Positions 25,293-57,257 of a DNA stretch of 64,000 bases are shown here, piece after piece (position 1 is the first letter of the stretch; the number at the start of each line of letters is the position of its first letter). The position numbers and the translations under genes are program-made. The notes below the pieces were generated by a model that did not search any database, had not been told where the DNA came from, and worked only from the letters and a program-made list of their open reading frames with translations. Location: positions 6,537-70,536 of the forward strand of contig JAIMBF010000003.1 in the NCBI GenBank assembly GCA_023511585.1. The letters are read 5' to 3'. Source of the DNA: Terriglobia bacterium (GTDB lineage Bacteria > Pseudomonadota > Alphaproteobacteria > Acetobacterales > Acetobacteraceae).

Positions 25293-26444
25293 GTGCCCGC
25301 ATTGTGGCCGATATTTCGCAGCATGACTGAAACACCCGTGCAGAATGGCGGCCGGCGCCTCGAGAAACTCGATCCCGCAACCTGTTGGGCCGCTCTTTGT
25401 GCCCGCGATGCGCGTTATGATGGCAGGTTCGTCTATACCGTGAAAACAACAGGCGTCTATTGTCGGCCCTCCTGCCGTTCTCGGCTGCCGCGGTTCGAGA
25501 ATGTTACCTTTTTTCCCACCCCCGCCGAGGCCGAAAAAGCAGGGTTCCGGCCTTGCAAACGCTGCCGCCCGGCCGAACCCTCGCCGGTGGAACGCCACCG
25601 CCGCGCCATCGAGCGCGCCTGCGCGCTCATCCGCGACGCAGAGGCCGCGCTTGATCTCTCTCAACTTGCCGCGGCCGTGGGCATGAGCCGCCATCATTTC
25701 CACCGTGTTTTCACTGAGATCGTGGGCTCTACGCCGGGGGCCTATCTGCGCACCCATCGGTTGCGGCGTCTCGCGACGGAATTGGAGAGCGGCGTGCCCG
25801 TAGCCGAGGCGGTCTATGCCGCCGGTTTCACCTCGAGCTCGCGCGCGTATGCCGCAGCCCCCGGGGGCCTGGGAATGACGCCGGGCGCCAGGCGCCGCGG
25901 CGGTGCCGGACAAATCATCCGCTACGCGACTGCCCGAACTTGGATCGGCTGGGTCATCCTTGCGGTAAGCGCGCGCGGGGTCTGCGCTGTCGCCTTCGGA
26001 GACGAACCGGAATCTCTTGTGGCCGATTTGCGCCGACGCTTCGCTTCCGCCACCCTCATCGAAGACCGGAAAGATTTGCATTCCTGGATGCAAAAGCTCG
26101 TCGATTATTTGGCCGCACCGGGGGCAAGAGCGCTTGATTTGCCGCTCGATATTCAGGGCACTGCGTTTCAGGCGCGCGTTTGGCAGGCGCTTCGAAAAAT
26201 CCCGCCCGGGCAGACTGTCAGCTACGCCGATATCGCCGCCGCGCTCGGCCAGCCGAATGCCGTTCGCGCCGTGGCGCGGGCGTGTGCCAGCAACCCCATC
26301 GCACTCTTTATCCCCTGCCATCGTGCGGTGCGGTCCGACGGAGGGCTTGCGGGATATCGATGGGGCGTGGAACGCAAACGCGCCCTGCTCGCAGCGGAAA
26401 AGCGCAGCGCTGAGGAGGCACCGAAGAAGAAGAATCCGGGCTAA
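25293..26444 (+). CDS. ada: Bifunctional Ada: methylphosphotriester-DNA methyltransferase / AraC-type regulator / O6-methylguanine-DNA methyltransferase
   Basis: Ada zinc site (YCRPSCRSR ... PCKRCRP), AraC HTH (GMSRHHFHRVF), C-terminal Ogt domain with PCHRAV active site. The start may be Met 25323. Confidence 0.85.
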   Translation: MPALWPIFRSMTETPVQNGGRRLEKLDPATCWAALCARDARYDGRFVYTVKTTGVYCRPSCRSRLPRFENVTFFPTPAEAEKAGFRPCKRCRPAEPSPVERHRRAIERACALIRDAEAALDLSQLAAAVGMSRHHFHRVFTEIVGSTPGAYLRTHRLRRLATELESGVPVAEAVYAAGFTSSSRAYAAAPGGLGMTPGARRRGGAGQIIRYATARTWIGWVILAVSARGVCAVAFGDEPESLVADLRRRFASATLIEDRKDLHSWMQKLVDYLAAPGARALDLPLDIQGTAFQARVWQALRKIPPGQTVSYADIAAALGQPNAVRAVARACASNPIALFIPCHRAVRSDGGLAGYRWGVERKRALLAAEKRSAEEAPKKKNPG

Positions 26445-26477
26445 ACCGCCCGCCGCACCGCCGAAGCCGGCCAAGGC
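26169..26477. repeat. Direct repeat copy A (last 91 codons of ada, its stop codon, plus 33 bp downstream)
   Basis: Aligns without indels to 42701-43009 with 13 substitutions by manual alignment. Confidence 0.9.
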
Positions 26478-42197: not shown

Positions 42198-42573
42198 ACC
42201 GTTATCATCCGACAGTCTAAAAGTGCGGTTTCTTTTGCAACGTACAGCATTTCTAAATCCTCCCACGAGCTCATCGCAGCCAACCGAGAGCAAGTCGGCA
42301 CTGATCACCCAAGTTGTTTGCGGCCGCCCTCGGGTGAGACCGCTCTTGTCTTCAAATCGGACGATGCGGACACAGCCGGCAGGGCGGCGATAAAAATGTA
42401 TCAAGACCGCGTGGGCCGGTATCGACTATTTTATCCATATCGGATCAATTATTCGGCCATACGTAAACAAGCCGAAAAAGAGTTGATCCGAAGCGGTTTT
42501 TTTAGAAGTGGCAATAAAGGGATTCCCGCAGGAACGGAGGTGTGATTCAAGCTTTTCGTTTGGGAGGCTTGAT

Positions 42574-42700
42574 CATGCAGAGATATGAGCTGACGGATTT
42601 TGAATGGGGTGTGATTGCGCCGTTGCTGCCGAACAAGCCGTGCGGCGTTCGGGGGTGGATGCCCGGCGGTTTCTGAACCGGATTTTTTGGGTCTTGCAAA
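42574..42700 (+). mobile_element. Degraded N-terminal fragment of an IS5-family (IS427/IS1031-like) transposase gene
   Basis: MQRYELTDF / EWGVIAPLLPNKP / VDARRFLNRIFWVLQTGA are readable only across three frames (at least two frameshifts). The fragment stops abruptly at the junction with repeat copy B. Confidence 0.55.
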
Positions 42701-42976
42701 CAGGCGCGCGTTTGGCAGGCGCTCCGAAAAATCCCGCCCGGGCAGACTGTCAGCTACGCCGATATCGCCGCCGCACTCGGCCAGCCGAATGCGGTCCGCG
42801 CCGTGGCGCGGGCGTGTGCCAGCAACGCCATCGCACTCTTTATCCCCTGCCATCGTGCGGTGCGGTCCGACGGAGGGCTTGCGGGGTATCGATGGGGCGT
42901 GGAACGCAAACGCGCCTTGCTCGCAGCGGAAAAGCGCAGCGTTGAGGAGGCACCGAAGAAGAAAGATCCGGGCTAA
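42701..42976 (+). pseudogene. 5'-truncated ogt/ada fragment (last 91 codons, PCHR site intact, no start codon)
   Basis: Reads QARVWQALRKIPPGQTVSYADIAAALGQPNAVRAVARACASNAIALFIPCHRAVRSDGGLAGYRWGVERKRALLAAEKRSVEEAPKKKDPG*. The frame is closed by TGA at 42674-42676, and no ATG, GTG or TTG codon lies between that stop and the repeat boundary at 42701. Confidence 0.8.
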
Positions 42977-43009
42977 ACCATCCCCCGCACCGCCGAAGCC
43001 GGCCAAGGC
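42701..43009. repeat. Direct repeat copy B (displaced 3' end of an ada/ogt gene)
   Basis: 309 bp collinear with 26169-26477, with 13 substitutions and no indels. Confidence 0.9.
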
Positions 43010-43109
43010 AGTACGATACTTCGTGGCCCAGATGCGCCCGTGCTCAACCTCGGGCGAGATGGTCCGCCGGCGCCCTCCCCCCAGCGTCTCAGGAATTCGA
43101 TAACGAAGT

Positions 43110-43137
43110 TTGCCAATGAAAGCAATTCAATTATAGT
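43110..43137 (+). promoter_or_regulatory. Candidate sigma-70 promoter of the three-gene helicase/methylase operon
   Basis: TTGCCA-16nt-TATAGT in a locally AT-rich spacer about 45 nt upstream of ATG 43180. Confidence 0.4.
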
Positions 43138-43179
43138 CTAAGATTCTCCGTCAAGCACAAATCCTAATCAAGGCCCGGC

Positions 43180-46092
43180 ATGCCGAACGCGATGATGGCA
43201 ACGTCACTCAACCCCGGTTCCATCGTTCGCTGCCGTAATCGAGAATGGGTCCTGTTGCCGGGGCAGACGGATGATATCTGGGCCCTCCGTCCCCTAACCG
43301 GCACCGAAGACGAGGTGGTGCAGGTCCACAGAGCCCTCGCCGATCTGGTGAGCAACGACCTTCCGTCCGAGCAAATCGCGCCCGCATCGTTTCCGCTGCC
43401 GACGGTCGCGGATGTCTCGGACGCCGCCAGTGCGCATCTTCTTTGGCAGGCAGCGCGCCTGACGCTGCGCGAAGGGGCGACACCGTTCCGCTCTCTAGGG
43501 CGGATCTCCATTCGTCCGCGAGTCTATCAGTTCGTGCCGCTGCTGATGGCCCTTCGGCTGAATCCGGTGCGTCTGTTCATCGCCGACGATGTGGGCGTGG
43601 GCAAAACCATCGAAGCGCTTTTGATCGCGCGCGAAATGCTCGATCGCGGTGAGATCAGCCGCTTCTGCGTGCTGTGTCCACCCTATTTATGCGAGCAGTG
43701 GGCAAAGGAGCTCGCCGAGAAGTTCAATCTGGATCCGGTGGTCATACGCTCCGGAACGGTTGGCCAACTCGAGCGCCAAGTCCCGGTCGGGAGAGACAGC
43801 ATCTACGCATACTTCCCAGTACAGGTGGCGAGCATTGACTTCGTCAAGACCGAACGCAACCGTCACCAATTCCTTCACTTCTGCCCCGAGCTCGTCATTG
43901 TGGATGAGGTGCACGGCGCCGCCGAGGCGCCGGGTTCGGCCCAGCAGGAACGGCACGCGCTTCTCCGCAAGGTGGCCGCCAAGGATCCCGCGCGCCACCT
44001 GATCCTTCTCACCGCCACGCCGCACTCCGGTATCGAGGGCACCTTTCGCTCGCTGCTCGGGTTGCTGCGGCCGGAGTTCGCCGCGTGGAATGTTGCCGAT
44101 CTCTCCGAAGAGCAGCGCGATGAGCTCGCCCGCCATTTCGTCCAGCGCACGCGGAAGGATATCGAGCGCGGATGGGAAGCCGCGCATTGTTTCCCCGAGC
44201 GGGAGCCGGTGGATGAGACCTACGCGCTCTCGCACTCCTACCGGAAACTTTTCGAGCAAACTTACGACTTTTGCTCCGAAATTGTCCGCACGGGAGAGCG
44301 CTTGGAACAGCGCAAACGACGCGTGCGTTACTGGGGCGCGCTCGCCCTTATGCGCTGCGTGATGTCAAGTCCGGCGGCCGCGGTGGCGGCACTCGGGAAA
44401 CGGGCCGGCGGGGTCTTGGCGGACGAGGACGAGTCCGAGTTTCGCCCTTTCGTGTTTGAATCGGCGGACGATCGCACCGATGACGAATCACCGGTGCCGC
44501 CTCTTGAAGCGGCGGCGGCAACATTCGCCGACACCGAACGCCGTCAGCTCGCTGAACTCAAGCGGCTGGCGGAGACGCTTCACGGTCCGGAGCACGACAC
44601 GAAGCTCGCCCGGGCCAGCGCGGTTGTGCAGCAACTTCTTGCGGAGGGTTTCTACCCCATTCTTTGGTGCCGCTATGTGGCCACGGCCGAATACCTGGCC
44701 AATCATCTCCGAGAGACTCTCTCGCAGGAAACGCAGGTGGTCTGCGTGACGGGTCGGCTGGCCGATGACGCGCGCCAGGCCAAGATCGAAGCGATCAATG
44801 CCGAGCGTCCGCGGGTGTTGGTGGCGACCGATTGCCTCTCCGAAGGGGTGAACCTGCAGGAAAAATTCACGGCGGTCGTCCACTACGACCTGCCTTGGAA
44901 CCCGAACCGCCTGGAGCAGCGGGAAGGGCGCGTGGATCGCTTCGGGCAGCAAGCCAAGCGGGTCAAGACAGTGCGGTTTTTCGGGCGCGACAACCCCGTG
45001 GATGGCGCCGTGATCGAGGTGCTCCTGGACAAGGCACGCGAAGTCCACCGGACGCTGGGCACCTACCTGCCGGTGCCCGAAGAAGGCGAGAGCGTGACAC
45101 AGGCGGTGCTGGAGGCGCTGTTCCTCAAGGGGCGGCGCGGCGTGGCGCAACAGCTCTCGCTCGACCTCAATTTGCCGGAAGTAGAAAACCTGCACCAACG
45201 CTGGGAGCGCGATGCCGAGCGCGAGCGCACCAACCGCACCAAATTTGCCCAGCGGGCCTTGAAACCCGAAGAAGTCCAGCGCGAACTCGAAGCCACCGAC
45301 GCGGTGCTCGGCGATCCGGACGCCGTCCGCGAGTTCGTCTTGGCGGCGGCCCAACGCCTCGGCTTGCCCGTCAGCCCGGACCGTCGTCCCGGCGTGTTTC
45401 GCATCGCCGTGTCGGCCGAGATACGGAAAACGATGCCGGAGCCCGTCCGCCTCGCCCTACCCGCCATCAAGAACAGCCACTGGCTGGTGAGCTTCCAGTC
45501 CCCCACGCCGGAAGCGGCCGAGTACCTCGGCCGGAACCACCGGTTCGTCACGGCTCTTGCGCGTTTCCTTTTCGAAGAAGCGCTGACGCGCTCCAGCGGT
45601 GCCACCGCCTCGCGCTGCGGCGTGCTGCGCACGCGCGCGGTCGCGGAGCTGACCAAAATTCTCCTGCTGCGCGTGCGTTATCTAACCGAGCAGCCGGAGA
45701 CGAGACCGCTCCTTTCCGAAGAAGTGCTGGTGATGGGCTATCGCGGGGGCCGGGCAAGCGACATCGCATGGCTCGATGAAAACGAGGCGCTCCGGCTGCT
45801 CACCGAGGCGAGGCCGGATGCAAATATCCCGCTGGAGGAGAAGCGCGAGTTGATCCGACACGCGTTGGCGCAATTGGGTGACTGGGCCACCCCCGACGGC
45901 GTATGGGGGACGCAAAACGCGATCCAAAGACACATACGCGGCCGACAGGTTGAACGCGCCGAGGAGCTTACGGAGGCCCACAAGCGCATTCGGCGGAGTG
46001 TCGCGTTGCGCGTGCGGGAGCTCAAGGTGAAGCCGCAGTTGCCGCCTGATCTTCTGGGAATTCTCGTTCTGCAACCGATGCTGCGGGTGTAA
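43180..46092 (+). CDS. SNF2-family helicase (DISARM DrmD-like)
   Basis: 970 aa. Motif I DDVGVGKT, motif II DEVH, motif III LLTATPHSG, helicase-C VLVATDCLSEGVNLQ ... QREGRVDRFGQ. There are extra N-terminal (~130 aa) and C-terminal (~330 aa) regions. Confidence 0.85.
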   Translation: MPNAMMATSLNPGSIVRCRNREWVLLPGQTDDIWALRPLTGTEDEVVQVHRALADLVSNDLPSEQIAPASFPLPTVADVSDAASAHLLWQAARLTLREGATPFRSLGRISIRPRVYQFVPLLMALRLNPVRLFIADDVGVGKTIEALLIAREMLDRGEISRFCVLCPPYLCEQWAKELAEKFNLDPVVIRSGTVGQLERQVPVGRDSIYAYFPVQVASIDFVKTERNRHQFLHFCPELVIVDEVHGAAEAPGSAQQERHALLRKVAAKDPARHLILLTATPHSGIEGTFRSLLGLLRPEFAAWNVADLSEEQRDELARHFVQRTRKDIERGWEAAHCFPEREPVDETYALSHSYRKLFEQTYDFCSEIVRTGERLEQRKRRVRYWGALALMRCVMSSPAAAVAALGKRAGGVLADEDESEFRPFVFESADDRTDDESPVPPLEAAAATFADTERRQLAELKRLAETLHGPEHDTKLARASAVVQQLLAEGFYPILWCRYVATAEYLANHLRETLSQETQVVCVTGRLADDARQAKIEAINAERPRVLVATDCLSEGVNLQEKFTAVVHYDLPWNPNRLEQREGRVDRFGQQAKRVKTVRFFGRDNPVDGAVIEVLLDKAREVHRTLGTYLPVPEEGESVTQAVLEALFLKGRRGVAQQLSLDLNLPEVENLHQRWERDAERERTNRTKFAQRALKPEEVQRELEATDAVLGDPDAVREFVLAAAQRLGLPVSPDRRPGVFRIAVSAEIRKTMPEPVRLALPAIKNSHWLVSFQSPTPEAAEYLGRNHRFVTALARFLFEEALTRSSGATASRCGVLRTRAVAELTKILLLRVRYLTEQPETRPLLSEEVLVMGYRGGRASDIAWLDENEALRLLTEARPDANIPLEEKRELIRHALAQLGDWATPDGVWGTQNAIQRHIRGRQVERAEELTEAHKRIRRSVALRVRELKVKPQLPPDLLGILVLQPMLRV

Positions 46093-46094
46093 GC

Positions 46095-49000
46095 GTGTTT
46101 CCTGCGATCCGGATCGAAGGCGGCCTGCTCGGGCCGGACACTTTGGACCAGCTCTTGGCGGGGGAGCTCGAGGGCCAAAATCCGGGCGATTTCGGCCTCG
46201 CTGGCCGACGAACGCTCACCGATGAAATCGCCGGCGTGTTTGCCGACGCCCGCGCCCAATGGCAGGTGTTCCAGCATCGGCGGGAGCGTCTGCCCGACGC
46301 CGACCAAGCCACCTCGGTCACGCGCGATGCGTGGATGATCCCCTTCCTCAGTTTCCTGGATTACAAGCTTTTCTATAACACGCGGGCCTACGTGGTGGAT
46401 GGCGCGACATTCGCCATCTCCCACCGGGCAGGAGACGCCGAAGACGCCCCGCCGGTGCACATCGTCGGCGCCCAGCAAGAGCTGGGGCGCCTCGCGCCCA
46501 CCGGGCGGCCCAGGCTCGCCCCGCACTCCCTCGTCCAAGAATACCTCAACCGCAGCGAACAACTCTGGGGCATCGTCACCAACGGTCTGACCATCCGGCT
46601 GCTGCGGAACAGCACCTACATCCGCCGTCAAGCCTATGTCGAGTTCGACCTGCGGCAGATCCTCGAGGAGCAACTCTTTCCCGATTTCTCGGTCCTCTAC
46701 CGTTTGCTTCACCGCTCGCGCCTGCCGCGCACGGCAAACGATGCCGGCGACTGCCTTCTGGAGCGGTACCATCGGCACGCGCTTGAGCAAGGCGGGCGCG
46801 TGCGCGAGGGCCTTCGCGACGGTGTGGAAAAATGTCTCACGCAGCTTGCCGAAGGCTTTCTGGCACACCCCAAAAACCAGAAGCTCCGCGCGCAGGTCTT
46901 GCCGAGCGGCAGTGAACCCGAGCGTTTGCCGGCGGAGGAACTCTACCGACAGCTCCTGCACCTCGTTTACCGTTTCCTGTTCCTCTTGGTGTCCGAGGAT
47001 CGGGGCCTGGTGAGCCCCGACCCACTCTATCGCGAACACTATGGCGTGGCTCGGCTGCGGCAACTGCTCGACCGCCGCAGCGCCTACACCGACTACGACG
47101 ACCTCTGGTGCAGCCTGCAGGTGCTCTGGAAAGCGCTCTCGGACGAGAAGCTGGCTCGATGCTTGGGCGCCACCCCCCTCAACAGCGAGCTCTTCGCGCC
47201 GATCGCGTTCGATCACTGTACGATCGCGAACCGGGACCTGCTCGAGGCCTTCCGGCACCTGACGTATTATCAAGAAAGCCAATCCCAGCCGCCGCGGCGC
47301 GTCAACTACGCCGCTTTGGATGTCGAAGAGCTCGGTTCGGTCTACGAAAGCCTGCTCGATCATCACGCGCAGATTGAAGAACCACACGAGCCGAACAATG
47401 TGCCGCGGTTTAAGCTGGCTTCCGGCTCCGAGCGCAAATCCACGGGCTCGTACTACACGCCGCCCGAACTCGTGGCCGAACTCATCCGCTCGGCATTGGA
47501 ACCGGTTTTGGAGGAGCGGCTGAAGCACGCGAAGAGTGGCGAAGAAAAGGCGCAGGCGATCCTCTCCCTGCGTGTCCTCGATCCCGCTTGCGGTTCCGGC
47601 CACTTTCTGCTCGCCGCCGCGCGCCGTCTCGGCAAGGAGCTTGCCAAAATCCGCACCGGCGAAGCCGAACCCGCCCCCGAGCGGGTGCGCGAAGCGATCC
47701 GCGAAGTGGTTGCGCGGTGCATCTATGGCGTGGACAAAAACCCCCTTGCCGTCGAGCTTGCCAAGGTCGCGCTTTGGATCGAGACCGTTGAGCCCAGCAA
47801 GCCGCTCACCTTCCTTAACCATCACATTCAATGCGGCGACAGCCTGGTGGGCGTCCTCGATCCCAAGATTCTGGCAAAACCCATCCCGGATGAGGCTTAT
47901 AAACCCTTGACCGGCGACGATAAGGAGATTTGCAACGCTCTCAAGAAACGGAACCGCGACGCCGAGGACCGCGTCCGCCAAGGCGATCTGCTCGATCGCG
48001 AGGCAGCCTTACGCGACCGGGCGCTCGCGGTATCGCTCAACGATATGCCGGAAGAGAGCCTTGCCGACATCGCGGCCAAGCGCGAGCGCTGGCAGCGCCT
48101 GCACCAAGATCCCCACTACGTGCGCGAAAAGTACCGCGCGGATCTCTTTACGGCCGCCTTCTTTGCGCCCAAGACTCGCGCCACCGCGGAAAAAGTGCCG
48201 GTCACGGAAGACCTCCTCTCCCTCGCGGAAGAACAGACTTCGCGCCCGGGGGTGATCGCGTATGCCGCGGAATTGGCCGCCCAGCATCGTTTCTTCCACT
48301 GGCATCTCGCTTTTCCGGAAATCATGGAGAAGGGAGGATTCGATGTCGTGCTCGGCAACCCGCCATGGGAGCGGATAAAATTACAGGAACAGGAGTTTTT
48401 CGCTAGCCGCAGCCGCGATATCGCGCGGGCAGCCAATAAGGCAGCGCGTGACAAGTTGATCAAGGATCTTGGGCGTTCAGACGCACGCCCGGACGAAAAG
48501 GCACTGCTGCTGGCCTTCGAAGAGGCGAAGCGGGGGGCCGAAGCCGCCAGCCAGTTCATCCGCACCGGCGGCCGCTACCCGCTCACCGGCACCGGCGACG
48601 TCAACACCTATGCGGTGTTCGCCGAAACGTTCTTGAATCTCATCAATCCGCACGGCCGCGCGGGATTTATTGTCCCGACGGGAATTGCCACCGACAATTC
48701 CACCAAAGCATTTTTTGAGTTCGTCTCGACCGAGCGACGGCTTGCGAGTTTGTTCGATTTCGAAAATAGGAAGCCGTTATTCCAGGCGGTGGACAGCCGC
48801 ATGAAGTTCTGCCTGCTGACATTGGGCACCGATATCCCACAGGCCGACTTTGTTTTCTTTGCCACCAACGTCAAGCAACTCGCCGATAGCCGTCGGCGCT
48901 TCATGCTCTCTCCGGAAGACATCCTCCGCATCAACCCCAACACGCGCACCGCGCCGGTGTTTCGCTCCCAGGCCGATGCGGAGCTCACCAAAAAGATCAA

Positions 49001-50003
49001 CGCCCGCGTGCCGGTGCTGGTCGATGAAAGCAAGGGCAAGGACGGCAACCCCTGGGGCATCAGCTTTATGGCTATGTTTCATATGTCGAATGACAGCGGG
49101 CGGTTCCGCAGTGCGGCGCAACTCGAGGCGACGGGCGCACGGCGTGAAGGCGTGAACTGGGTCGAGCCGTCAGGACAGATTTGGGTGCCGCTCTACGAAG
49201 CGAAGATGATCCACCAGTTCGATCATCGCTGGGCGACCTACGAGACCGACGGAGAAACCTCCCGCGACGTGACCGAGCAGGAAAAGAAACGGGAGGATTT
49301 CGAGCCAAACCCCCGCTATTGGGTGCCGCAGCGGGAGGTGGAGGATCGGCTCCGCGCCAAAGGCTGGACGCGCGGCTGGCTGATGGGTTGGAGGGATATT
49401 ACCAACGCGACAAACGAGCGCACGGTGATCGCGGCGGCAGTGCCTAGGGTGGGGGTCAATCATAAAATCCCGTTGTTCATGACCGCGCACAAACCGTCAC
49501 TTGCTGCGGCTTTACCGGCCAACTTCAGCGCTCTGGTTTTGGACTACGTAGCACGGCAAAAAGTTGGAGGAACGTCGCTGACCTACTTTTATCTCAAGCA
49601 GTTCCCTGTCCTGCCGCCCTCCGCCTACGACCAAGAGGACCTAGATTTCATTATCCCTCGGGTGCTCGAACTTATTTATACCAGCCCGGCGATGAAGCCC
49701 TTCGCCAAGGATCTGGGCTACGACGGTCCGCCTTTCGCCTGGGATCCCGACCGCCGCGCTTGGCTCCGCGCCGAGCTCGATGCCTACTACGCGCGCCTCT
49801 ACGGCCTCACCCGCGACGAACTCCGCTATATCCTCGACCCATCGGACGTGAAGGGCTCCGATTATCCCTCGGAAACATTTCGCGTGCTGAAAGACAACGA
49901 AATCCGGCGCTATGGCGAATACCGCACCGCCCGCCTTACTCTCGCATGCTACGACGCCATGCAACAGGCCGAGCGCAGCAAGAGGCTACAGACAACCCCA
50001 TGA
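46095..50003 (+). CDS. Large gamma-class N6-adenine DNA methyltransferase (Eco57I/PglX/DrmMI-like)
   Basis: 1302 aa. GTG start 2 nt after the upstream stop. Has GSYYTPPELV, the SAM motif VLDPACGSGHFL (about 47580-47610) and catalytic NPPW (48357-48368). No nuclease motif was recognised. Confidence 0.85.
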   Translation: MFPAIRIEGGLLGPDTLDQLLAGELEGQNPGDFGLAGRRTLTDEIAGVFADARAQWQVFQHRRERLPDADQATSVTRDAWMIPFLSFLDYKLFYNTRAYVVDGATFAISHRAGDAEDAPPVHIVGAQQELGRLAPTGRPRLAPHSLVQEYLNRSEQLWGIVTNGLTIRLLRNSTYIRRQAYVEFDLRQILEEQLFPDFSVLYRLLHRSRLPRTANDAGDCLLERYHRHALEQGGRVREGLRDGVEKCLTQLAEGFLAHPKNQKLRAQVLPSGSEPERLPAEELYRQLLHLVYRFLFLLVSEDRGLVSPDPLYREHYGVARLRQLLDRRSAYTDYDDLWCSLQVLWKALSDEKLARCLGATPLNSELFAPIAFDHCTIANRDLLEAFRHLTYYQESQSQPPRRVNYAALDVEELGSVYESLLDHHAQIEEPHEPNNVPRFKLASGSERKSTGSYYTPPELVAELIRSALEPVLEERLKHAKSGEEKAQAILSLRVLDPACGSGHFLLAAARRLGKELAKIRTGEAEPAPERVREAIREVVARCIYGVDKNPLAVELAKVALWIETVEPSKPLTFLNHHIQCGDSLVGVLDPKILAKPIPDEAYKPLTGDDKEICNALKKRNRDAEDRVRQGDLLDREAALRDRALAVSLNDMPEESLADIAAKRERWQRLHQDPHYVREKYRADLFTAAFFAPKTRATAEKVPVTEDLLSLAEEQTSRPGVIAYAAELAAQHRFFHWHLAFPEIMEKGGFDVVLGNPPWERIKLQEQEFFASRSRDIARAANKAARDKLIKDLGRSDARPDEKALLLAFEEAKRGAEAASQFIRTGGRYPLTGTGDVNTYAVFAETFLNLINPHGRAGFIVPTGIATDNSTKAFFEFVSTERRLASLFDFENRKPLFQAVDSRMKFCLLTLGTDIPQADFVFFATNVKQLADSRRRFMLSPEDILRINPNTRTAPVFRSQADAELTKKINARVPVLVDESKGKDGNPWGISFMAMFHMSNDSGRFRSAAQLEATGARREGVNWVEPSGQIWVPLYEAKMIHQFDHRWATYETDGETSRDVTEQEKKREDFEPNPRYWVPQREVEDRLRAKGWTRGWLMGWRDITNATNERTVIAAAVPRVGVNHKIPLFMTAHKPSLAAALPANFSALVLDYVARQKVGGTSLTYFYLKQFPVLPPSAYDQEDLDFIIPRVLELIYTSPAMKPFAKDLGYDGPPFAWDPDRRAWLRAELDAYYARLYGLTRDELRYILDPSDVKGSDYPSETFRVLKDNEIRRYGEYRTARLTLACYDAMQQAERSKRLQTTP

Positions 50004-53000
50004 GCACGATTTTCGATCTGCGTGAGAGGGTTCTGAAAGATTACAGCGATTTCGTGCGCTCGTTCCTCTTGATCGCCGACGCGCGGGCACAGGAATTCGT
50101 CGATCGGGCACTGGCGGAGGAAAACCACTTATGGCCGGAGCCGCTGGTGCAACTCAGCCCCGCTTATGCGCCGGGCGCGACGGTGAACGAGCTTGCCCAA
50201 GACGGCCTGATCACGCAGCAGACCGCAAAAATCTTCCGTCACCCTGAGGGAAAGCCGTTTCGCCTGTATCGCCACCAGGAGGACGCTATCCGCAAAGCCC
50301 TTGCCGGGGAGAGCTTCGTAGTCACCTCGGGCACCGGCTCGGGCAAGAGTCTCTGCTATTTCCTCCCGATCATCGACAGCCTCATGCGGATGCCCGACAC
50401 CGGCGCGCGCACCTTTGCCCTGGTGGTCTATCCCATGAATGCGTTGGTCAACTCGCAGCATCAGGCCCTGACCGCGCTCCAACAGCGCTACGAGCAACAT
50501 TTCGGCGAGTCTTTTCCGGTGCGCTTCGCCAAGTATACGGGCGAGACGACCGATGCGGAACGGGAGATGATGCGGAACCAACCGCCGCAGGTGCTCCTCA
50601 CGAACTATGTCATGGCCGAGCTGCTCCTTGTGCGACCCGAGGATCGGCGCTTCCTCGATCGCGTCGATGACGGGCTGCGGTTTCTTGTCTTCGATGAGTT
50701 GCACACCTATCGGGGGCGCCAAGGAGCAGACGTGGCGATGCTGGTGCGTCGGATTAAAGAGCGCTGCGCCGCCGACGATCTCGTGCATATCGGCACCAGT
50801 GCCACCATGGTCGCGCAGCCGGGGGCAAGCGCCCTCGAACGGCGGCGGGTTGTGGCCGATTTCGCCACGCGTTTCTTCGGGCACGGCTTCACCCCCGAGC
50901 AAGTGATCGAAGAAACGCTCGCGCCCTTTACCGAAGGGGAATATCCGTCCCCTGAAGAGTTGAAAGCGGCGCTCTCGGCTCCGTTACCCTCCAAGGATCC
51001 GGCTGCATTCCGCCGCCATCCGCTGGTGCGCTGGATGGAGCGCGAACTGGGTTGGGAAGATGCCGAGGGCGGTCTCAAGAGACGTGTCCCGCGATCGCTT
51101 TCCGAAGTCGCGGGGAGACTGTCGGAACTCACGGGGGTTGCTCCCGCGCATTGTTTAGAAAGACTGCGCGAGACGCTCGTTCAGGGAAGCGAACTCCCGA
51201 AAGGGGGCGGCCATTACGTTCCGGCGTTCAAGCTCCATCAGTTCATCAGCCAAGGCCGGACCCTCTATGCCACCCTAGAGGATGCCGAGCAACGCGAGTT
51301 CTCGCTGGATGGCCAGCTTCAGGCGGGCGAGGGGAAGCTGTTCTTTCCGGTCAAATTCTGTCGGCAGTGCGGCCAGGATTACTATCACGTGGTACGGAGC
51401 GCTCGCCGCTATGACCCCCACCCCGTTGGTGTCGAGCTCGAGGAAGACGAAGAGAGCGAAGCAGGATATCTCATGCTGGCGCCGCGGGAGCAGGACTGGT
51501 CCGACGAGCAGCTCCCGGCAGAGTGGTACGGCAAGAACGGCAGGCTCGCATCCACCTGGAAGGACCGGGTACCCCGGCCTGTCTGGGTCTGCCCGGATGG
51601 GTCGGAGGCCACCGGGGCCGAGTGCCATGCGCGCAAGATGTGGTGGCAGCCGAAGCCGTTTACGCTATGCCTCGCCTGCGGGGAGTACTACACAGGGCGC
51701 GAACGTGAATTCGTCAAGCTCGCCTCGCTCTCCAGCGAAGGCCGTTCGAGCGCGACGACAATTCTGGCAAGTTCGCTCTTGCGCCACGCGGGTGCGACCC
51801 AGGTGGTGCGCAATAAGCTTTTGACCTTCACGGATAACCGTCAGGACGCTTCGCTCCAGGCAGGGCACTTCAACGATTTCGTGCAAGTGATGCTCCTGCG
51901 GGCGGCTCTCTATGCGTCACTCGAAAAAGCCAAGGAACTGACCTTCGATGCTATCGCCGCAAAGGTTGTAGAAGCCTCGGGCCTCAGGATTGCCGACATC
52001 GCCAAGAACGCCGAACTGGATCCGAAGTCGCCCGCTGCGCGGGAAGTCTGGAAACTCTTCACCGATCTTACCGAATACCGGTTGTACGAAGACCTGCGCC
52101 GTGGCTGGCGCGTGGTCCATCCCAACCTGGAGCAGGTGGGGCTTTTGCGGGTGGAGTATGTCGGCCTGGAAGAGCTGAGCAGGAGCCCAGATTTAGCAGC
52201 GATACATCCGTGGTTCGCGAAGAGCCGGCCCGAGGAATGCGCGGGCTTTCTCCGTGCCGTCTTGGATCAATTCCGGCGGAAACTGGCGATCCGGGCCCAG
52301 GTTCTGGAGGAGGAGTTTCAGCAGCGGCTCGCTCGTCGGTCGGCGCACCATCTCAATGAGTTCTGGGGCTTGGACCCAGCCTCAAACGAACTCCGCCAGG
52401 CTACGCGTTTCGTGCTCCCGGGCCCGTCGGGCCAGCCGCTGAAGGGCTTTAGCCTCGCGGAGCGGAGTTTGATCGGCCGGTTTCTCACAGCCAAGCTTAG
52501 CATCTTCGGGACCGCTTATCGCGAGGTTCTTGGCGGCCTTCTTGATCTCTTGGTGCGGCAAGGATTCCTCTTTCGCACCGAATCCGGTGACGGCCATAAG
52601 TCCTACCAGCTCGACGCAGCCTGCCTGCGCTGGTGTCTCGGCGATGGATCGGCGCCGCCCCCGGATCCGCTGTATTCCCGCCGCGCATCTCAAGCCGGCG
52701 ATGCGCAACTTCGCCGGGGCGTCAATCCGTTCTTCCAAAGCTTTTACAAGGTGCAACCCGCGAGCCTCGCTGCTCTGGAAGCCCGCGAGCACACCGCCCA
52801 GGTGGTCCAGCCCGGTGAGCGCGAACGCCGCGAACGCCGGTTTCGTTGGGGGGAGCAGGAGAGCGGGAAATCGGCCGAATTGGGGCGGCCGCTGCCGTAT
52901 CTCGTATGCTCGCCCACGATGGAATTGGGTGTGGACATCGCGGACCTGGACCTCGTGCACCTGCGCAATGTCCCGCCCACGCCGGCCAACTACGCCCAGC

Positions 53001-55075
53001 GCAGCGGCCGTGCCGGCCGTCAAGGCAAGCCCGGCTTGATCCTGGCTTACTGCGGCGCCCTCAACAGCCACGACCAGTACTTCTTTTCACGCCGTGCGGA
53101 CATGGTAGCCGGGAGCGTGCGTGCGCCCCGGCTCGATCTCGCCAATGAATCCTTACTTCGCGCCCATATTCACGCAGTCTGGCTGGCTCATATCCATCTC
53201 AGACTGGGCAATTCCGTTGAGGAAGTGATCGATACCGATAACGACAAGCTTCCGCTTCGGGAGGAGGTGGTCGCGAAAATCCAGCTCAGCGAAGCAGGTC
53301 GCGTGGAAATTCTGGAGCGGGTTCGCGAGAAGATCTTGGCCGCAGACCAAGCGAGGCTCGCTTCGAGCGGGTGGTTCTCCGAACTTTGGATCGAACAGGT
53401 TCTCGCGGAGGCACCACGCGCGTTCGACCGGGCCTTCGAGCGATGGCGGGAGCTTTACCGGGCAGCAAAGCGCCAGCTGAACGAAGCGCGCGGCGAAGAG
53501 GATCGGGCAAAGACTCATGAAGAACAGCAGAGGGCCAAAACACGGCAGGAGGAAGCCCGCCGGCAGTTGAACTTGCTTCTTCAAGTGGGCGTGACGCGGG
53601 AGGAGAGCGATTTCTACCCTTATCGCTATCTTGCCAGCGAAGGTTTCCTGCCCGGCTATAATTTTCCGGCGCTTCCCGTGCGCGCCTGGCTGCCGCGGGG
53701 TGAGGGAGAGTTCATCGCCCGGCCGCGCTTTCTGGCTATTCGCGAGTTTGCTCCGCAGAATTTCCTTTATCACGAAGGGGCGCAGTGGGAATCGTTTGCC
53801 TTCCAGGCGCCACCGGGGGGGCTGGACGAACGCAAGAGCCAAAAGCGGCTATGCAACACCTGCGGGGCGTTTTCGGAGCCGAAGCTCGATCTCTGCCCGG
53901 TTTGCGAAACGCGGTTTGATGGTGGGAACAGCGCACTCATTCTTGGGCTCGATATGCCGAACGTGCGGATGCAGCGGCGCGGCCGGATTACCGCCGACGA
54001 AGAGGAACGTCGACGACGGGGGTACAGGCTTGAGATCTGCTTCCAGTATGCATCCGAGGCCGCAGGCTACCGCATCCAGGAAGCCGATGTGGTGGTGAAC
54101 GACACGCCGGCCTTGCGCCTGATCTACGCGCCGGCCGCGACGGTTTTGTGCGTCAATCACGGCTGGCGGAGCGCAAATGCACCGGGATTCCTCGTGGATT
54201 TCGAGAGCGGAGAGGTTTTATCCTCGGAGGAAAGTGACAAGAGCCGAGAGAGGCGCCCGCGACGCCTAGAGCGCGTGAAGCTCTTCGTCCAGTCCACTCA
54301 GAACCTTCTGCGCCTTCGGGTGATTGACGCGGCGTGGGAGGGTACGCCCGATCGCGAGAAAAGCCTCTTATATGCGCTCAAGCGTGGCCTTGAGGAGGCT
54401 TTCCAGCTCGAAGAATCAGAGCTCGCGGCGGAGTGGATCGGCGAGGGCGAGCACCGGGCTATTCTTCTCTACGAGGCGGCCGAAGGTGGGGCCGGCGTGC
54501 TTCAGAGACTCGTCCAAGAACCCGACGCGTTGGCCCAAGCCGCCCGGTCGGCCCTCGATGTCTGTCATTTCGACGCGAAGGGCGACGACCGCAAGCCGGA
54601 CTGCCGCGCCGCGTGTTACGAGTGCCTCCTAAGCTTCGGGAACCAGCGAGAAGCTCTGTTTCTCAACCGCTACACGATTCGGGAATTCCTCTTGGCTCTG
54701 GCCGCAAGCCGCACCGAGCCGCGAAACACACCCCGATCGCGGGAAGACCATCTGGCCCGGTTGCGTTCATTGACGGACTCCCGCTCAGCGCTGGCGCGCC
54801 GCTTCCTGGATGTGCTCGCCGAGGGCGGCTACCGGCTGCCCGATGAGGCGCAAAAGTCGATCGCCGAGCCAGACTGCACTTTCGATTTCTTCTTCACGCC
54901 GAATGTGTGTGTCTTCTGCGATGGGGCAGCGCAAGACGAGCGTGCTCACGTCGTCCGGGATCGCGGATTACGGGACGAACTGCTACGGCGCGGATACCGG
55001 GTGGTCGTCATCCGCGGCAATCAGGACCTGAGAGAGCAAGTCCGTCAGTATCCGGAGATTTTTGGGGGTCATTGA
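50000..55075 (+). CDS. Giant DExH helicase fused to a Cys-rich DUF1998-like module and a C-terminal Vsr/DUF559-like domain (DrmA+DrmB-like / DruE-like)
   Basis: 1691 aa from ATG 50000 (ATGA overlap with the methylase stop). Helicase motifs: GTGSGKS (about 50330), DELH (about 50693), SAT, QRSGRAGRQG (about 53000). Cysteine pairs: CRQCG / CLACG, then CNTCG..CPVC (about 53850-53915) and CRAACYEC (about 54600). The tail reads FDFFF..VFCDG..H..D..R..L..GYRVVVIR. Confidence 0.85.
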   Translation: MSTIFDLRERVLKDYSDFVRSFLLIADARAQEFVDRALAEENHLWPEPLVQLSPAYAPGATVNELAQDGLITQQTAKIFRHPEGKPFRLYRHQEDAIRKALAGESFVVTSGTGSGKSLCYFLPIIDSLMRMPDTGARTFALVVYPMNALVNSQHQALTALQQRYEQHFGESFPVRFAKYTGETTDAEREMMRNQPPQVLLTNYVMAELLLVRPEDRRFLDRVDDGLRFLVFDELHTYRGRQGADVAMLVRRIKERCAADDLVHIGTSATMVAQPGASALERRRVVADFATRFFGHGFTPEQVIEETLAPFTEGEYPSPEELKAALSAPLPSKDPAAFRRHPLVRWMERELGWEDAEGGLKRRVPRSLSEVAGRLSELTGVAPAHCLERLRETLVQGSELPKGGGHYVPAFKLHQFISQGRTLYATLEDAEQREFSLDGQLQAGEGKLFFPVKFCRQCGQDYYHVVRSARRYDPHPVGVELEEDEESEAGYLMLAPREQDWSDEQLPAEWYGKNGRLASTWKDRVPRPVWVCPDGSEATGAECHARKMWWQPKPFTLCLACGEYYTGREREFVKLASLSSEGRSSATTILASSLLRHAGATQVVRNKLLTFTDNRQDASLQAGHFNDFVQVMLLRAALYASLEKAKELTFDAIAAKVVEASGLRIADIAKNAELDPKSPAAREVWKLFTDLTEYRLYEDLRRGWRVVHPNLEQVGLLRVEYVGLEELSRSPDLAAIHPWFAKSRPEECAGFLRAVLDQFRRKLAIRAQVLEEEFQQRLARRSAHHLNEFWGLDPASNELRQATRFVLPGPSGQPLKGFSLAERSLIGRFLTAKLSIFGTAYREVLGGLLDLLVRQGFLFRTESGDGHKSYQLDAACLRWCLGDGSAPPPDPLYSRRASQAGDAQLRRGVNPFFQSFYKVQPASLAALEAREHTAQVVQPGERERRERRFRWGEQESGKSAELGRPLPYLVCSPTMELGVDIADLDLVHLRNVPPTPANYAQRSGRAGRQGKPGLILAYCGALNSHDQYFFSRRADMVAGSVRAPRLDLANESLLRAHIHAVWLAHIHLRLGNSVEEVIDTDNDKLPLREEVVAKIQLSEAGRVEILERVREKILAADQARLASSGWFSELWIEQVLAEAPRAFDRAFERWRELYRAAKRQLNEARGEEDRAKTHEEQQRAKTRQEEARRQLNLLLQVGVTREESDFYPYRYLASEGFLPGYNFPALPVRAWLPRGEGEFIARPRFLAIREFAPQNFLYHEGAQWESFAFQAPPGGLDERKSQKRLCNTCGAFSEPKLDLCPVCETRFDGGNSALILGLDMPNVRMQRRGRITADEEERRRRGYRLEICFQYASEAAGYRIQEADVVVNDTPALRLIYAPAATVLCVNHGWRSANAPGFLVDFESGEVLSSEESDKSRERRPRRLERVKLFVQSTQNLLRLRVIDAAWEGTPDREKSLLYALKRGLEEAFQLEESELAAEWIGEGEHRAILLYEAAEGGAGVLQRLVQEPDALAQAARSALDVCHFDAKGDDRKPDCRAACYECLLSFGNQREALFLNRYTIREFLLALAASRTEPRNTPRSREDHLARLRSLTDSRSALARRFLDVLAEGGYRLPDEAQKSIAEPDCTFDFFFTPNVCVFCDGAAQDERAHVVRDRGLRDELLRRGYRVVVIRGNQDLREQVRQYPEIFGGH

Positions 55076-55079
55076 ACCG

Positions 55080-55300
55080 CTCGTAGCATGCGCACGATGT
55101 CCGGCGCTGCTCGCGCTGATTTCTCACGCCTTGCGTTGTACCGGCCGATCTGCCACCCTATTCGTCGGACCTCAACCGATCGCGCAGGCCTTCCCCAAGA
55201 TCAAACACTGGATGCGCTCCGCCCGGAAGCGCACCGTCGAGGACGCCTGGCGCCACATCGGCAACCTCGTCCAGGGCGATGCCTCGCCCAACAGCAAGGC
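55080..55300 (+). mobile_element. Degraded C-terminal fragment of an IS630-family transposase gene
   Basis: ADLPPYSSDLN in one frame continues as PIAQAFPKIKHWMRSARKRTVEDAWRHIGNLV in another (frameshift near 55160). This matches the LPPYSPDLNPIEQAF.KLK region of IS630 transposases. There is no N-terminal part, and the fragment begins right after the helicase stop. Confidence 0.55.
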
Positions 55301-55500
55301 ATTGCCTGGTCTGATAGTCTTGAGTCTTTCGGGACGGCGTCGGACGGAGGCAGCCGCAGAGGTGAGAAGTTCCCTCCCTTCCCCCTCCATTGCGTCACCC
55401 TCATAACGCATCACGGCCAATCCATAGCCGGTTCTATCCGGGCGAAGCAGTATGTCGGCGAGAGCCCCGACGATGGCGGCGATCGCGGAAGCAACGGCCG

Positions 55501-56028
55501 TCAAAGGCGCGCCATCGCGCTCAGCTCATCCCAGCCCGAAGCAGCCGGAGGCTTGGCGAGAAGGCGAAACACTTCACTTAAAGGCATGTCGTGATGCTTG
55601 GATCGCGATTGGGGAACCGCTGTCGAATAAGGAGATGTCGGTTCCCGCGGGATTGCGTGTTCGGACCTTGGCGACGCTTCGCTCGTGAAGGCCGCGGGGT
55701 CTGGCCCCTTTTGCGGAGCCGGCGGGGTCTGCCATCCCCCCGTTGGCTCGCGGTCAAGTCGCGGTTCGACTGGGCTGCTTGCCTGAGGCTCAGTCGCAGA
55801 GGCGGAGAGTTCGGGGGCAACCGTCGGTTGGCGTTGCGCTGCAGGCGAAGCCACGCCGGTCTGTCCCGCTGTGGGCAAAGCCCGCGCGACAAGGGGGAAG
55901 ACTTCTGCCATTGACGTTTCGTCCTCAGAGGCTGTACCGACGCGCAGCCCGAAGTTCCGATAACCGAGTGAAGGAGCGCCGAACGAAACCGCCGCGCGCG
56001 TTACATCGTTGTCTTTGTCAGTGCTCAT
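55501..56028 (-). CDS. Pro/Ala-rich protein, possibly a short CcpAx/BcsH-like cellulose-complementing protein
   Basis: 175-aa ORF 26 nt downstream of the GH8 gene on the same strand. It is low-complexity and P/A/S-rich, with two copies of a (M/L)(A/S)EVF..L(V/L)A motif (SMAEVFPLVA, PLSEVFRLLA). CcpAx carries a similar MAEVF motif as I recall it. Confidence 0.4.
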   Translation of the reverse strand: MSTDKDNDVTRAAVSFGAPSLGYRNFGLRVGTASEDETSMAEVFPLVARALPTAGQTGVASPAAQRQPTVAPELSASATEPQASSPVEPRLDREPTGGWQTPPAPQKGPDPAAFTSEASPRSEHAIPREPTSPYSTAVPQSRSKHHDMPLSEVFRLLAKPPAASGWDELSAMARL

Positions 56029-56054
56029 TGCGCTTTATCCTCCTCGTACTGCGC

Positions 56055-57257
56055 TTAAAGACCCCTCCAAGAAAGATATGTTAGCACGATAAGCGCAGCC
56101 GAGTAATAATCTGTCTGCGCATTGATAGTCGGGAGCTCCGCAGGCGGCACCGAAGCGCTGGCCAGCTGTTCTCCGTTTGCGCGTAGGAAAAAGTCGGCCA
56201 CGGCTTGAATACCCGGAGAGGCCGGATAGGGCGCAATCTCGCCGGTGCAAAGGTCCACCCACGCCGGGTGAAAACCCGGTTTTTCATTCCAATAAGCGGT
56301 AAAGGACGCGCGCAGCCCGGGCACGGTGAGTCCTGCCTCGGTCAAATAAAGGAGAACGCGAATGGCATCGTAGGAAAACCGCGCCGGCCAGCGCGGTGCC
56401 GGGGCAAGGGTCCCGTCGCGCCGGGAAATGCTAAGCCAATCCGGCGGCAGCTGCCAGCGCCCGAAACGCCCTTCCTTGATCAGGGCATACCCGTCGGTCT
56501 GCACACGGCGGAGGCGTGCCGAGGAAATGAGGGTATTGATTTCGGCCAAAGCACGAAATGCATAATAGGAAGGATTGATGATGACCGCATCCGTCGTCTC
56601 GAAGCCGCGCAGACCCGGCAACAGCACCATGCGCTGCCCCACCTGCCGCGTCAGCAATCGATCGATGTCGTGCGCAATCGCACGAGCTGCTCGGATCAGT
56701 TCGGGGCGGTGCCAACGCCGCCCGGCACGGCTTAACGCGGCGGCAATCATGATATCGCCATCGGTCGCGTTGTTCGGGTCTGCGACGGGATCGGCGGCGG
56801 CGGGATCGTAGCGCCACATGTGTAGCGCGTTATCATCCCGCCGGAGATGCGAAGTCGTCCATTCATAGATGCGACGAAAAGTTTCCGCATCCCCGAAGGC
56901 TTCGGCAAAGAGCAGCCCATACCCCTGGCCTTCGCTGTGCGAGATACCGCCTTTTCCGGTATCGATCACACGGCCGTCAGGGGTAATGAATCGCTCGCGA
57001 AAAGCCACCCATTCCGTGTAACCGGTATCGGTGACCGTGGGCTCTTGCGGAGCAAGGTCCGCTTGCCCGCTTGCCAAGGTCTCATCCGAGTTGGACGGCG
57101 CCGGCGAGTCTTGTGAGTCATCAGCCGCTAATACCGTTTCCGCGCTACTCCATTTTTGAAAAAGTCGCGGACCGATAAACGGGGCCAACACGACAAGCCC
57201 TGCGAGCGTCAGCACGGGGCGGCGGCCGAAGAGAGGAAACGGGACAAAGCGGGGCAT
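56055..57257 (-). CDS. bcsZ: Glycoside hydrolase family 8 endo-1,4-beta-glucanase (BcsZ/CMCax-like)
   Basis: From MPRFVPFPLF (ATG 57257), with a signal-anchor segment. GH8 motifs SEGQGYGLLFA and NATDGDIMIAAAL. Confidence 0.85.
   Translation of the reverse strand: MPRFVPFPLFGRRPVLTLAGLVVLAPFIGPRLFQKWSSAETVLAADDSQDSPAPSNSDETLASGQADLAPQEPTVTDTGYTEWVAFRERFITPDGRVIDTGKGGISHSEGQGYGLLFAEAFGDAETFRRIYEWTTSHLRRDDNALHMWRYDPAAADPVADPNNATDGDIMIAAALSRAGRRWHRPELIRAARAIAHDIDRLLTRQVGQRMVLLPGLRGFETTDAVIINPSYYAFRALAEINTLISSARLRRVQTDGYALIKEGRFGRWQLPPDWLSISRRDGTLAPAPRWPARFSYDAIRVLLYLTEAGLTVPGLRASFTAYWNEKPGFHPAWVDLCTGEIAPYPASPGIQAVADFFLRANGEQLASASVPPAELPTINAQTDYYSAALIVLTYLSWRGL

Follow-up and report, generated by a model that had tools for sequence, protein, structure and literature searches.

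The anti-phage defense system ARMADA was described by Bell et al. (bioRxiv, 15 Sept 2025, 10.1101/2025.09.15.676423, PMC12458937), and we compare with it here a three-gene operon found at positions 43180–55075 of a 64,000-nucleotide stretch of contig JAIMBF010000003.1 (GenBank assembly GCA_023511585.1), referred to below as the window. ARMADA Type I is composed of ArmA, a RapA/BrxHII-like SNF2 helicase, ArmB, a PglX-like N6-adenine methylase, and ArmC, a YprA-family helicase with a C-terminal Vsr-type nuclease (PMC12458937). The ARMADA helicase, with its fused C-terminal Vsr-type nuclease, is closest to Druantia DruE, and in the YprA phylogeny ARMADA groups with Druantia, whereas DISARM and Dpd fall in another clade (PMC12458937). 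The helicases WP_108720193.1 and WP_000937974.1 serve as representatives of Type I and Type II, respectively (PMC12458937). Both C-A-B and reversed A-B-C gene orders are given for Type I, the reversal being found in many archaea and cyanobacteria; the Type II order is strict, with the SNF2 helicase, methylase and helicase followed by ArmD, a RelE-GajB fusion (PMC12458937). In Escherichia coli, ARMADA Type II confers broad, direct and non-abortive protection (PMC12458937 and the EDL933 study), and the system is already detected by DefenseFinder (EDL933 study). Type II defense requires every gene of the system, as well as the ArmA and ArmC Walker motifs and the NPPW motif in ArmB, and phages with hypermodified DNA escape it.

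The operon in the window is, with high confidence, an ARMADA Type I anti-phage defense operon in the order armA-armB-armC, for which we propose a mechanism below and which carries an armC allele whose nuclease is probably impaired. An exact-sequence look-up identified the gene 3 product (ArmC) as MBX5452525.1 and MCL6490408.1, the former of which appears under the label 'ARMADA Type I helicase' in Table S1 of PMC12458937. The same Table S1 label is attached to two full-length ArmC homologues, Limisphaera NGO39052.1 (70% identical) and Chloracidobacterium QUW01731.1 (66%). The system, helicase included, has thus been published and catalogued since September 2025, and as a system the locus adds nothing new beyond ARMADA Type I. 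A first-pass annotation of this DNA had proposed an undescribed or unclassified defense subtype, a claim that falls because the same combination was named ARMADA in September 2025 and gene 3 is listed in its Table S1. The new details are the lost Vsr residues of this copy of ArmC, an ArmB cassette that forms a mosaic difference among otherwise ~99% identical loci, and the variable defense genes that relatives often have between armB and armC.

ARMADA Type I components in the window

The operon consists of armA (43180–46092, ATG start, 970 amino acids (aa)), armB (46095–50003, GTG start, 1302 aa) and armC (50000–55075, 1691 aa counted from the ATG at 50000), which are encoded on the forward (+) strand, as are all other features of the window described below. 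The armA stop codon (TAA, 46090–46092) is followed by the armB GTG at 46095, and armB and armC overlap in an ATGA at 50000–50003. The three open reading frames (ORFs) span ~11.9 kb and are uninterrupted in three independent assemblies. The first-pass description of three tightly coupled ORFs on the same strand is therefore borne out, as are the motifs quoted for the three genes, every one of which was found, and the TTGCCA-16 nt-TATAGT element upstream. This promoter-like element (43110–43137), positioned 43 nt upstream of armA, is the top sigma-70-like match (10/12) in a scan of 42400–56100 (13.7 kb), and the number of such sites in the same region was not above chance (3 vs 2.1 ± 1.3 in shuffled sequence); its role as a promoter is putative. 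The genes armA-armB-armC would be transcribed as a single unit, with translational coupling among the three.

The features that mark Type I are observed in the encoded proteins: ArmC is a YprA-family helicase, ArmA and ArmB are encoded adjacent to it, and a single zinc cluster is found in the OB region of ArmC. The fold of the ArmC tail matches that of a Vsr nuclease, with PDB entry 3r3p as the top match, and the active-site pattern of the domain is broken by E1599A and H1645Q. The window shares with described Type I systems the three component families and an ArmC that is catalogued exactly, and it differs from them in its A-B-C order, as opposed to the commoner C-A-B, and in the loss of the Vsr Glu and His in its lineage. 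With the Type II operons (armABCD of E. coli NCTC 12900, ATCC 8739 and EDL933) it has in common the A-B-C order and the three protein families. However, Type II includes ArmD (RelE-GajB/UvrD-like) and often has extra inactive EEP/Vsr domains on ArmC, neither of which is present in the window, and it has two OB-region zinc-binding inserts compared with one in Type I. No armD (encoding a RelE-like domain and a GajB/UvrD-like helicase) was found after armC, where only an IS630 insertion sequence (IS) fragment and the end of a bcs operon are observed. One OB-region cluster, one Vsr domain and no ArmD fit Type I and exclude Type II, which we rejected on the absence of armD and of a second OB zinc insert. 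A blastn search of armC against E. coli genomes gave no match, and tblastn and searches with DruE DNA led only to E. coli loci of Druantia III, in a yjiT-mcrBC context.

ArmA and ArmB

ArmA is assigned by its profile and motif matches as a RapA/BrxHII-like SNF2 helicase. Pfam places SNF2-rel_dom and Helicase_C domains at residues ~128–300 and 489–589, respectively, and the protein contains the motifs DDVGVGKT (136), DEVH (242), TATPHSG (278) and QREGRVDRFGQ (580), of which the Walker A DDVGVGKT, DEVH and QREGR are intact. Its best sequence relatives in the PDB are RapA (5e-20). The best NCBIfam match is DrmD (NF038317; 3e-95), at 320 bits against a cut-off of 610, and NCBIfam DpdE reaches 192 bits against a cut-off of 500. 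Among PADLOC models, 'DpdE' PDLC02853 scores 5e-177, followed by DrmD (3e-84) and BrxHII (4e-55). PDLC02853 covers ArmA from end to end (profile positions 1–971 of 985) and probably represents ARMADA ArmA sequences, not true DpdE. ArmA departs from its homologues at 4 of 163 conserved columns, through conservative changes only, and the departures of ArmA and ArmB from conserved columns all lie outside the catalytic motifs, with the exception of DEVH in place of the usual DEAH.

ArmB is a PglX/DrmMI-like gamma-class N6-adenine DNA methyltransferase of the Eco57I/MmeI kind. Its methyltransferase core spans residues ~439–770 and includes the motifs DPACGSGHFL (496) and NPPW (755), both intact, with motif I DPACGSG read in the sequence at nt 47580–47600 and NPPW at nt 48357–48368. 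Pfam matches are to Eco57I (1.9e-23), N6_Mtase and MmeI_Mtase, and the best PADLOC match is DrmMI (2.7e-84), accompanied by type IIG models and PglX (2.8e-16); every score against the NCBIfam BREX PglX models was far below its cut-off. MmeI is the sole PDB sequence match. No Pfam domain was found in residues 1–435, and in the C-terminal part the match was confined to the end of Eco57I.

A cassette within armB (47807–48603; residues ~571–836, including the NPPW region) has been replaced relative to the same locus in the Logan contigs L001 and L083. DNA identity between the window and L001 is 99.4% up to 47807 and 97.1% from 48603 onward, with no blastn match between these points. Compared with the L001/L083 allele (1313 aa), the ArmB protein is 99.3% identical over residues 1–560, ~35% over residues ~571–836 and 82% over residues 850–1302; L083, in the same genomic context, shares the allele of L001. 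The cassette and the C-terminal ~450 residues are closest to the ArmBs of distant loci with the canonical gene order. The mosaic pattern suggests recombinational swapping of specificity-determining regions between strains.

The ArmC helicase

ArmC is a YprA-family superfamily 2 helicase with a fused OB-CON-DUF1998 region and a C-terminal Vsr-like domain. In a single ORF, Pfam identifies DEAD (91–271), Helicase_C (965–1009) and MZB/DUF1998 (1458–1543) domains, and the helicase motifs GTGSGKS (~111), DELH (232), SAT (267) and QRSGRAGRQG (1000) are intact. PADLOC DruE models score between 1e-93 (DruE3) and 2e-59, compared with 2.5e-12 for DrmA, and NCBIfam DpdJ reaches 66 bits against a cut-off of 800. 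The PDB sequence matches are 9tu7, a 2108-aa helicase (5e-40), and MrfA (1e-23). The form of ArmC as a single 1691-aa ORF is conserved across ~130 homologues. The domains that the first-pass annotation expected from a Pfam search (SNF2/Helicase_C, N6-adenine methylase/Eco57I and DEAD/Helicase_C/MZB-DUF1998) were all found in the three proteins. PADLOC v2 would give this operon a mixture of Dpd, DISARM and Druantia names (DpdE, DrmMI and DruE).

Three invariant four-cysteine clusters are present in ArmC. The first (454/457/557/560, CxxC...CxxC) is located within a beta-rich insert; the second (1285/1288/1299/1302) is, at the sequence level, the only cluster between RecA2 and DUF1998, placing it in the OB region; and the third (C1522/C1535/C1539/C1542) is the DUF1998 cluster. 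An AlphaFold2 model of residues 1–1200 was poor (predicted local distance difference test score (pLDDT) 67.5, predicted template modeling score (pTM) 0.39), with MrfA as the best fold match (9e-10); at this pTM it shows a helical segment at 278–398 and a long helical hairpin at 1098–1194. The DruE structures 9tu7 and 9wae, both in the PDB sequence set, were not among the Foldseek matches. Pfam searches with the isolated tail and insert regions of ArmC gave no match or marginal ones (DZR, E 0.15).

The nuclease tail of ArmC

The C-terminal part of ArmC (residues ~1580–1691, nt 54737–55072) forms a Vsr-like nuclease domain of the PD-(D/E)xK superfamily ('EDxHD' type). Because Pfam gave no firm match for the tail, the assignment is drawn from a fold search and a weak profile match. 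An AlphaFold2 model of residues 1545–1691 (pLDDT 79) has as its top Foldseek match in the PDB 3r3p, the Vsr-like catalytic domain of I-Bth0305I (E 6.9e-3, probability 1.0, TM 0.72 on the target), and a sequence profile of the tail matches the same entry with E 0.057, aligning D1654 with I-Bth0305I D222. The first-pass annotation had noted a nuclease-like tail of a kind different from PLD, and the tail is indeed Vsr-like. Bell et al. likewise report 3r3p for related Vsr domains (PMC12458937). In I-Bth0305I, residues D196, N208, H213 and D222 are equivalent to D51, H64, H69 and D97 of Vsr, and the histidine is seen as the general base (Taylor et al. 2011, PMC3239194). By the same nine-residue spacing, ArmC H1645 corresponds in the alignment to this general-base histidine (Vsr H69) and D1629 to Vsr D51. 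E1599 lies in the first helix of the Vsr-like domain, and we take it to correspond to Vsr E25, which gives the EDxHD motif its 'E'.

These positions are nearly invariant in the family: across 68 ArmCs down to 37% identity, E1599 is found in 67, D1629 in 68, D1641 in 67, H1645 in 66 and D1654 in 66, and both E1599 and H1645 are conserved in all 126 of the close homologues (126/126). The ArmC of the window carries E1599A (nt 54794–54796) and H1645Q (CAA, nt 54932–54934), and also Y1632F. Three of its 11 departures from columns conserved at 97% or more (≥97%) are found within the 112-residue tail. Q1645 is confined to the cluster of sequences at least 98% identical to the window, which has two other members from two other sequencing runs, and is therefore a fixed trait of the lineage, not a sequencing error. 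With two of five family-invariant residues replaced, the ArmC nuclease of this lineage is probably inactive or strongly impaired.

A Gemmataceae metagenome-assembled genome (MAG; L028, 3668–8761) contains an ArmC tail that is independently and more heavily degraded, with E1599, D1641, G1642 and H1645 all replaced, so that the nuclease site has been lost more than once within Type I. In related systems, the PLD nuclease domains of DruE are fully dispensable for Druantia III-A defense, and DrmC is dispensable against some phages (both from the same 2026 preprint); nuclease loss therefore need not abolish defense.

Gene order among relatives

The arrangement of the three genes was surveyed by tblastn of the three window proteins on 80 loci from one-genome-per-species contigs. 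At 16 of these, armA-armB lies upstream of armC on the same strand, and the ArmCs are 41–64% identical to that of the window. The canonical armC-armA-armB order is observed at ~24 of the 80, which are more distant (ArmC 37–58%) and include the archaeon Methanosphaerula, and one locus has the order B-C-A. The survey of homologous loci for the three-gene order, which the first-pass annotation had called for, thus finds A-B-C (16/80) alongside the ~24 C-A-B loci. The A-B-C order extends beyond the alphaproteobacterial-type context to Acidobacteriota, Verrucomicrobiota, Chloroflexota and relatives of Thermus. Public records label these genes 'DEAD/DEAH box helicase' or 'hypothetical protein'.

On the Thermus thermophilus plasmid pAA1-1b (L082, 3071–15543), genes in the A-B-C Type I order have only generic RefSeq names, with armB annotated as two overlapping coding sequences (likely a frameshift) and, as in the window, an IS630-family transposase fragment directly 3' of armC.

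In many of the A-B-C relatives, armB and armC are separated by 0.3–4.4 kb of sequence with variable genes on the same strand, compared with which the window represents the compact form. Such inserts were located in L003 (6712–10001), L010 (6422–9985), L013 (6320–9985), L019 (7760–10007), L027 (6496–9834) and L034 (6429–9129), and the genes within such inserts encode, for example, an AAA_15/AAA_21 ATPase, AAA_14-DUF4143, an AAA+ protein with an S8 subtilase, CBS-DUF7662-DUF4268, an MBL-fold protein and a MarR-like protein. The junction of armB with armC thus resembles a hot spot at which defense cargo is embedded. In L002, L012 and L075 (also L016 and L056), with ArmCs 57–64% identical to that of the window, no armA or armB was found within 10 kb upstream, and the neighbors there are other genes of defense type, encoding an IrrE/M78 peptidase, Fic, a NERD-kinase, AbiEi-like proteins and an AAA_21 ATPase. 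The ArmC of L056 is split over two ORFs, and in L016 only a C-terminal fragment of ArmB is left.

Flanking sequence

The IS fragments that the first-pass annotation saw bracketing the operon are confirmed, with an IS5-family remnant on the left and an IS630-family remnant on the right. The left fragment (~42543–42718) is the frameshifted N-terminal part of an IS5-family transposase, identified by a weak Pfam DUF4096 match and by blastn identity of 68–71% to annotated IS5-family transposase genes on alphaproteobacterial plasmids. The right fragment (~55150–55275), from the C-terminal part of an IS630-family transposase and also frameshifted, is 84–85% identical by blastn over 126 nt to an annotated Bradyrhizobium IS630-family transposase gene, and its frames can be read directly as ...PPYSSDLN / PIAQAFPKIKHWMRSARKRTVEDAWRHIGNLV. 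A check with a distant Thermus IS630 protein as query gave no result; the DNA search against plasmids did match.

A duplicated ada 3' end, encoding an O6-methylguanine methyltransferase domain (42701–43009, Pfam DNA_binding_1 7e-34), is placed between the IS5 fragment and the promoter-like site. It is a 309-nt direct duplication, 95.8% identical to 26169–26477, the 3' end of the intact ada gene (Ada/Ogt, 25293–26444). Logan contigs L001 and L083, which contain the same locus, both end at this duplication, probably because of the ada repeat.

Upstream neighbors of the operon include SDR/epimerase genes and a sugar ABC transporter, and a GH8-bcsD-bcsC-bcsB cellulose operon lies downstream. The operon stands alone, as an insertion with IS remnants on its flanks, between metabolic genes on one side and the cellulose-synthase operon on the other. 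No PLD, DrmB-like or UvrD-like genes were found among the neighbors of the operon, in agreement with the first-pass annotation, which had noted the absence of a PLD gene nearby.

Two MAG labels, 'Acidobacteriia bacterium' and 'Methyloceanibacter sp.', are attached to deposits of the identical ArmC protein, and the flanking IS fragments have their nearest matches on plasmids of Bradyrhizobium, Rhizobium and Methylosinus. An alphaproteobacterial host is probable, and one or both of the labels likely reflect a binning error.

Alternative explanations

Several described systems share parts with this operon. That it is a compact, non-canonical class 1 DISARM, with DrmA and DrmB fused and DrmC replaced so as to form a new subtype, is highly improbable. 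DrmD is the best NCBIfam match of gene 1 and DrmMI the best PADLOC match of gene 2, the published name ARMADA itself means 'disARM-related', and both DISARM class 1 and the window have related SNF2 helicases and N6-adenine methylases beside a DUF1998-type helicase, with methylation-based self/non-self discrimination presumed in both. To this extent the first-pass view of a defense-type operon related to DISARM class 1 is supported through the SNF2 helicase and the methylase. However, the DrmD score is little more than half of its cut-off (320 vs 610 bits), ArmC matches DruE far better than DrmA (1e-93 vs 2.5e-12), neither a separate DrmB nor a PLD-type DrmC is encoded among the neighbors, and the nuclease is a fused Vsr-type domain instead of a separate PLD protein. 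Furthermore, ARMADA is placed with Druantia and apart from DISARM/Dpd in the YprA phylogeny (PMC12458937), and the arrangement has its own name and catalogue entry. A DISARM subtype is thus ruled out by the absence of the defining split DrmA/DrmB and PLD nuclease. Of the first-pass proposal that DrmA and DrmB had collapsed into one polypeptide, the single-chain helicase-DUF1998 architecture stands, as a protein of the DruE type, but membership in DISARM does not.

Still less credible is a Druantia- or Dpd-type system that has DruE or DpdJ as gene 3, DpdE as gene 1, and partners that are missing or unrecognized. In its favor, DruE models are the best matches of gene 3, the 'DpdE' model PDLC02853 aligns end to end with gene 1 (5e-177), and 9tu7, the 2108-aa helicase, is the best PDB sequence relative of gene 3. 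ArmC and DruE of Druantia type III (DruH-DruE) are in fact closest helicase relatives, both being giant single-chain YprA-like proteins with zinc-binding inserts and a C-terminal nuclease-type domain. The window differs in having no DruH, in the SNF2 helicase and methylase partners, and in a Vsr-like tail where DruE has a double PLD, and E. coli DruE aligns with ArmC only locally (29–33% over two stretches). DruH, DruA-D and DruM/F/G are absent among the neighbors, as are the dpdA/B/C 7-deazaguanine genes, and DpdE and DpdJ stay well under their NCBIfam cut-offs (192 of 500 and 66 of 800 bits); both systems were ruled out on the absence of partner genes. BREX shares with the operon the resemblance of ArmB to PglX and of ArmA to BrxHII/RapA, and differs in having BrxA/B/C/L and PglZ, which the window does not; with these genes absent and the PglX NCBIfam scores below cut-off, BREX or a type IIG restriction-modification system was rejected.

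The alternative that carries more weight, and that we nonetheless consider rather unlikely, is that the operon is a degenerating or non-defending ARMADA remnant, in which restriction has been lost via the ArmC nuclease and the methylase and two ATPases persist, or in which decay followed immobilization of a mobile element. Several observations weigh in this direction and against an operon that still defends. E1599A and H1645Q (plus Y1632F) replace residues kept in all close and 66–67 of 68 distant homologues, the departures of ArmC include three in its short tail, truncated IS5 and IS630 fragments flank the operon, and decay of the same Vsr-like domain is independent and further advanced in L028. 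Relative to the 98% identical locus L001, the ratio of nonsynonymous to synonymous substitution rates (dN/dS) is 0.20 for armA (8 differences) and a fairly high 0.55 for armC (49 differences), but dN/dS at ~1% divergence is unreliable and the differences are too few to separate purifying from relaxed selection. Together, the two substitutions, the IS remnants on both flanks and the armC dN/dS would fit a system whose defense has been lost. Bell et al. themselves mark the Type I Vsr domain 'active?' (PMC12458937), and ARMADA experiments so far concern Type II only. The catalytic residues of ArmC are assigned by alignment to Vsr and I-Bth0305I and not from a solved ArmC structure, and the model (pTM 0.39) is too weak to assign the BrxA-like insert that marks the ARMADA/Druantia helicase lineage, or the MarR-like insert. 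In Type I helicases the BrxA-like insert is helical and follows RecA1, RecA2 contains a Cys-rich beta-barrel (ZBM) and the MarR-like insert, and a long helical extension precedes the OB fold. On the other side, the ORFs, ~11.9 kb in all, show no interruption in three assemblies, the motifs of the helicases and the methylase are preserved, and the nucleases of the related Druantia III-A and DISARM systems can be dispensed with, the latter against some phages. We therefore favor the assignment as an ARMADA Type I defense operon with an impaired nuclease.

Proposed mechanism and significance

The mechanism that we propose for this ARMADA Type I locus draws on homology and on experiments with ARMADA Type II, DISARM and Druantia. 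ArmB is predicted to recognize and methylate a specific DNA motif, providing host self-marking and/or target specificity, while ArmA and ArmC, as ATP-driven motors, would act on phage DNA that lacks the mark, whether invading or replicating, or on single-stranded intermediates. Their action would be direct, without killing of the host cell. The OB-CON-DUF1998 'canopy' of ArmC may grip single-stranded DNA, which in a typical ArmC would be cut by the C-terminal Vsr-type nuclease. The ArmC allele of the window probably no longer cleaves DNA, and any defense that remains would have to come from unwinding or translocation powered by ATP, or from a nuclease of the host; failing this, the locus would be decaying. 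A more speculative proposal, which we regard as doubtful, is that this natural nuclease-dead Type I system still defends, phage being cleared by ATP-driven unwinding or translocation guided by ArmB, and that the swapped ArmB cassette retargets it between close strains.

The generic labels of these genes in public records and the part-names given by PADLOC v2 (DpdE, DrmMI, DruE) mean that scans will go on 'rediscovering' ARMADA. As a compact three-gene Type I operon without inserted cargo, the locus would be a convenient experimental construct. Its double Vsr-site substitution provides a natural test of the need for the nuclease, a question that arises in parallel for Druantia and DISARM. If nuclease-dead defense were to hold true, the Vsr nuclease of ArmC would not be the effector, in parallel with the dispensable PLD domains of DruE.

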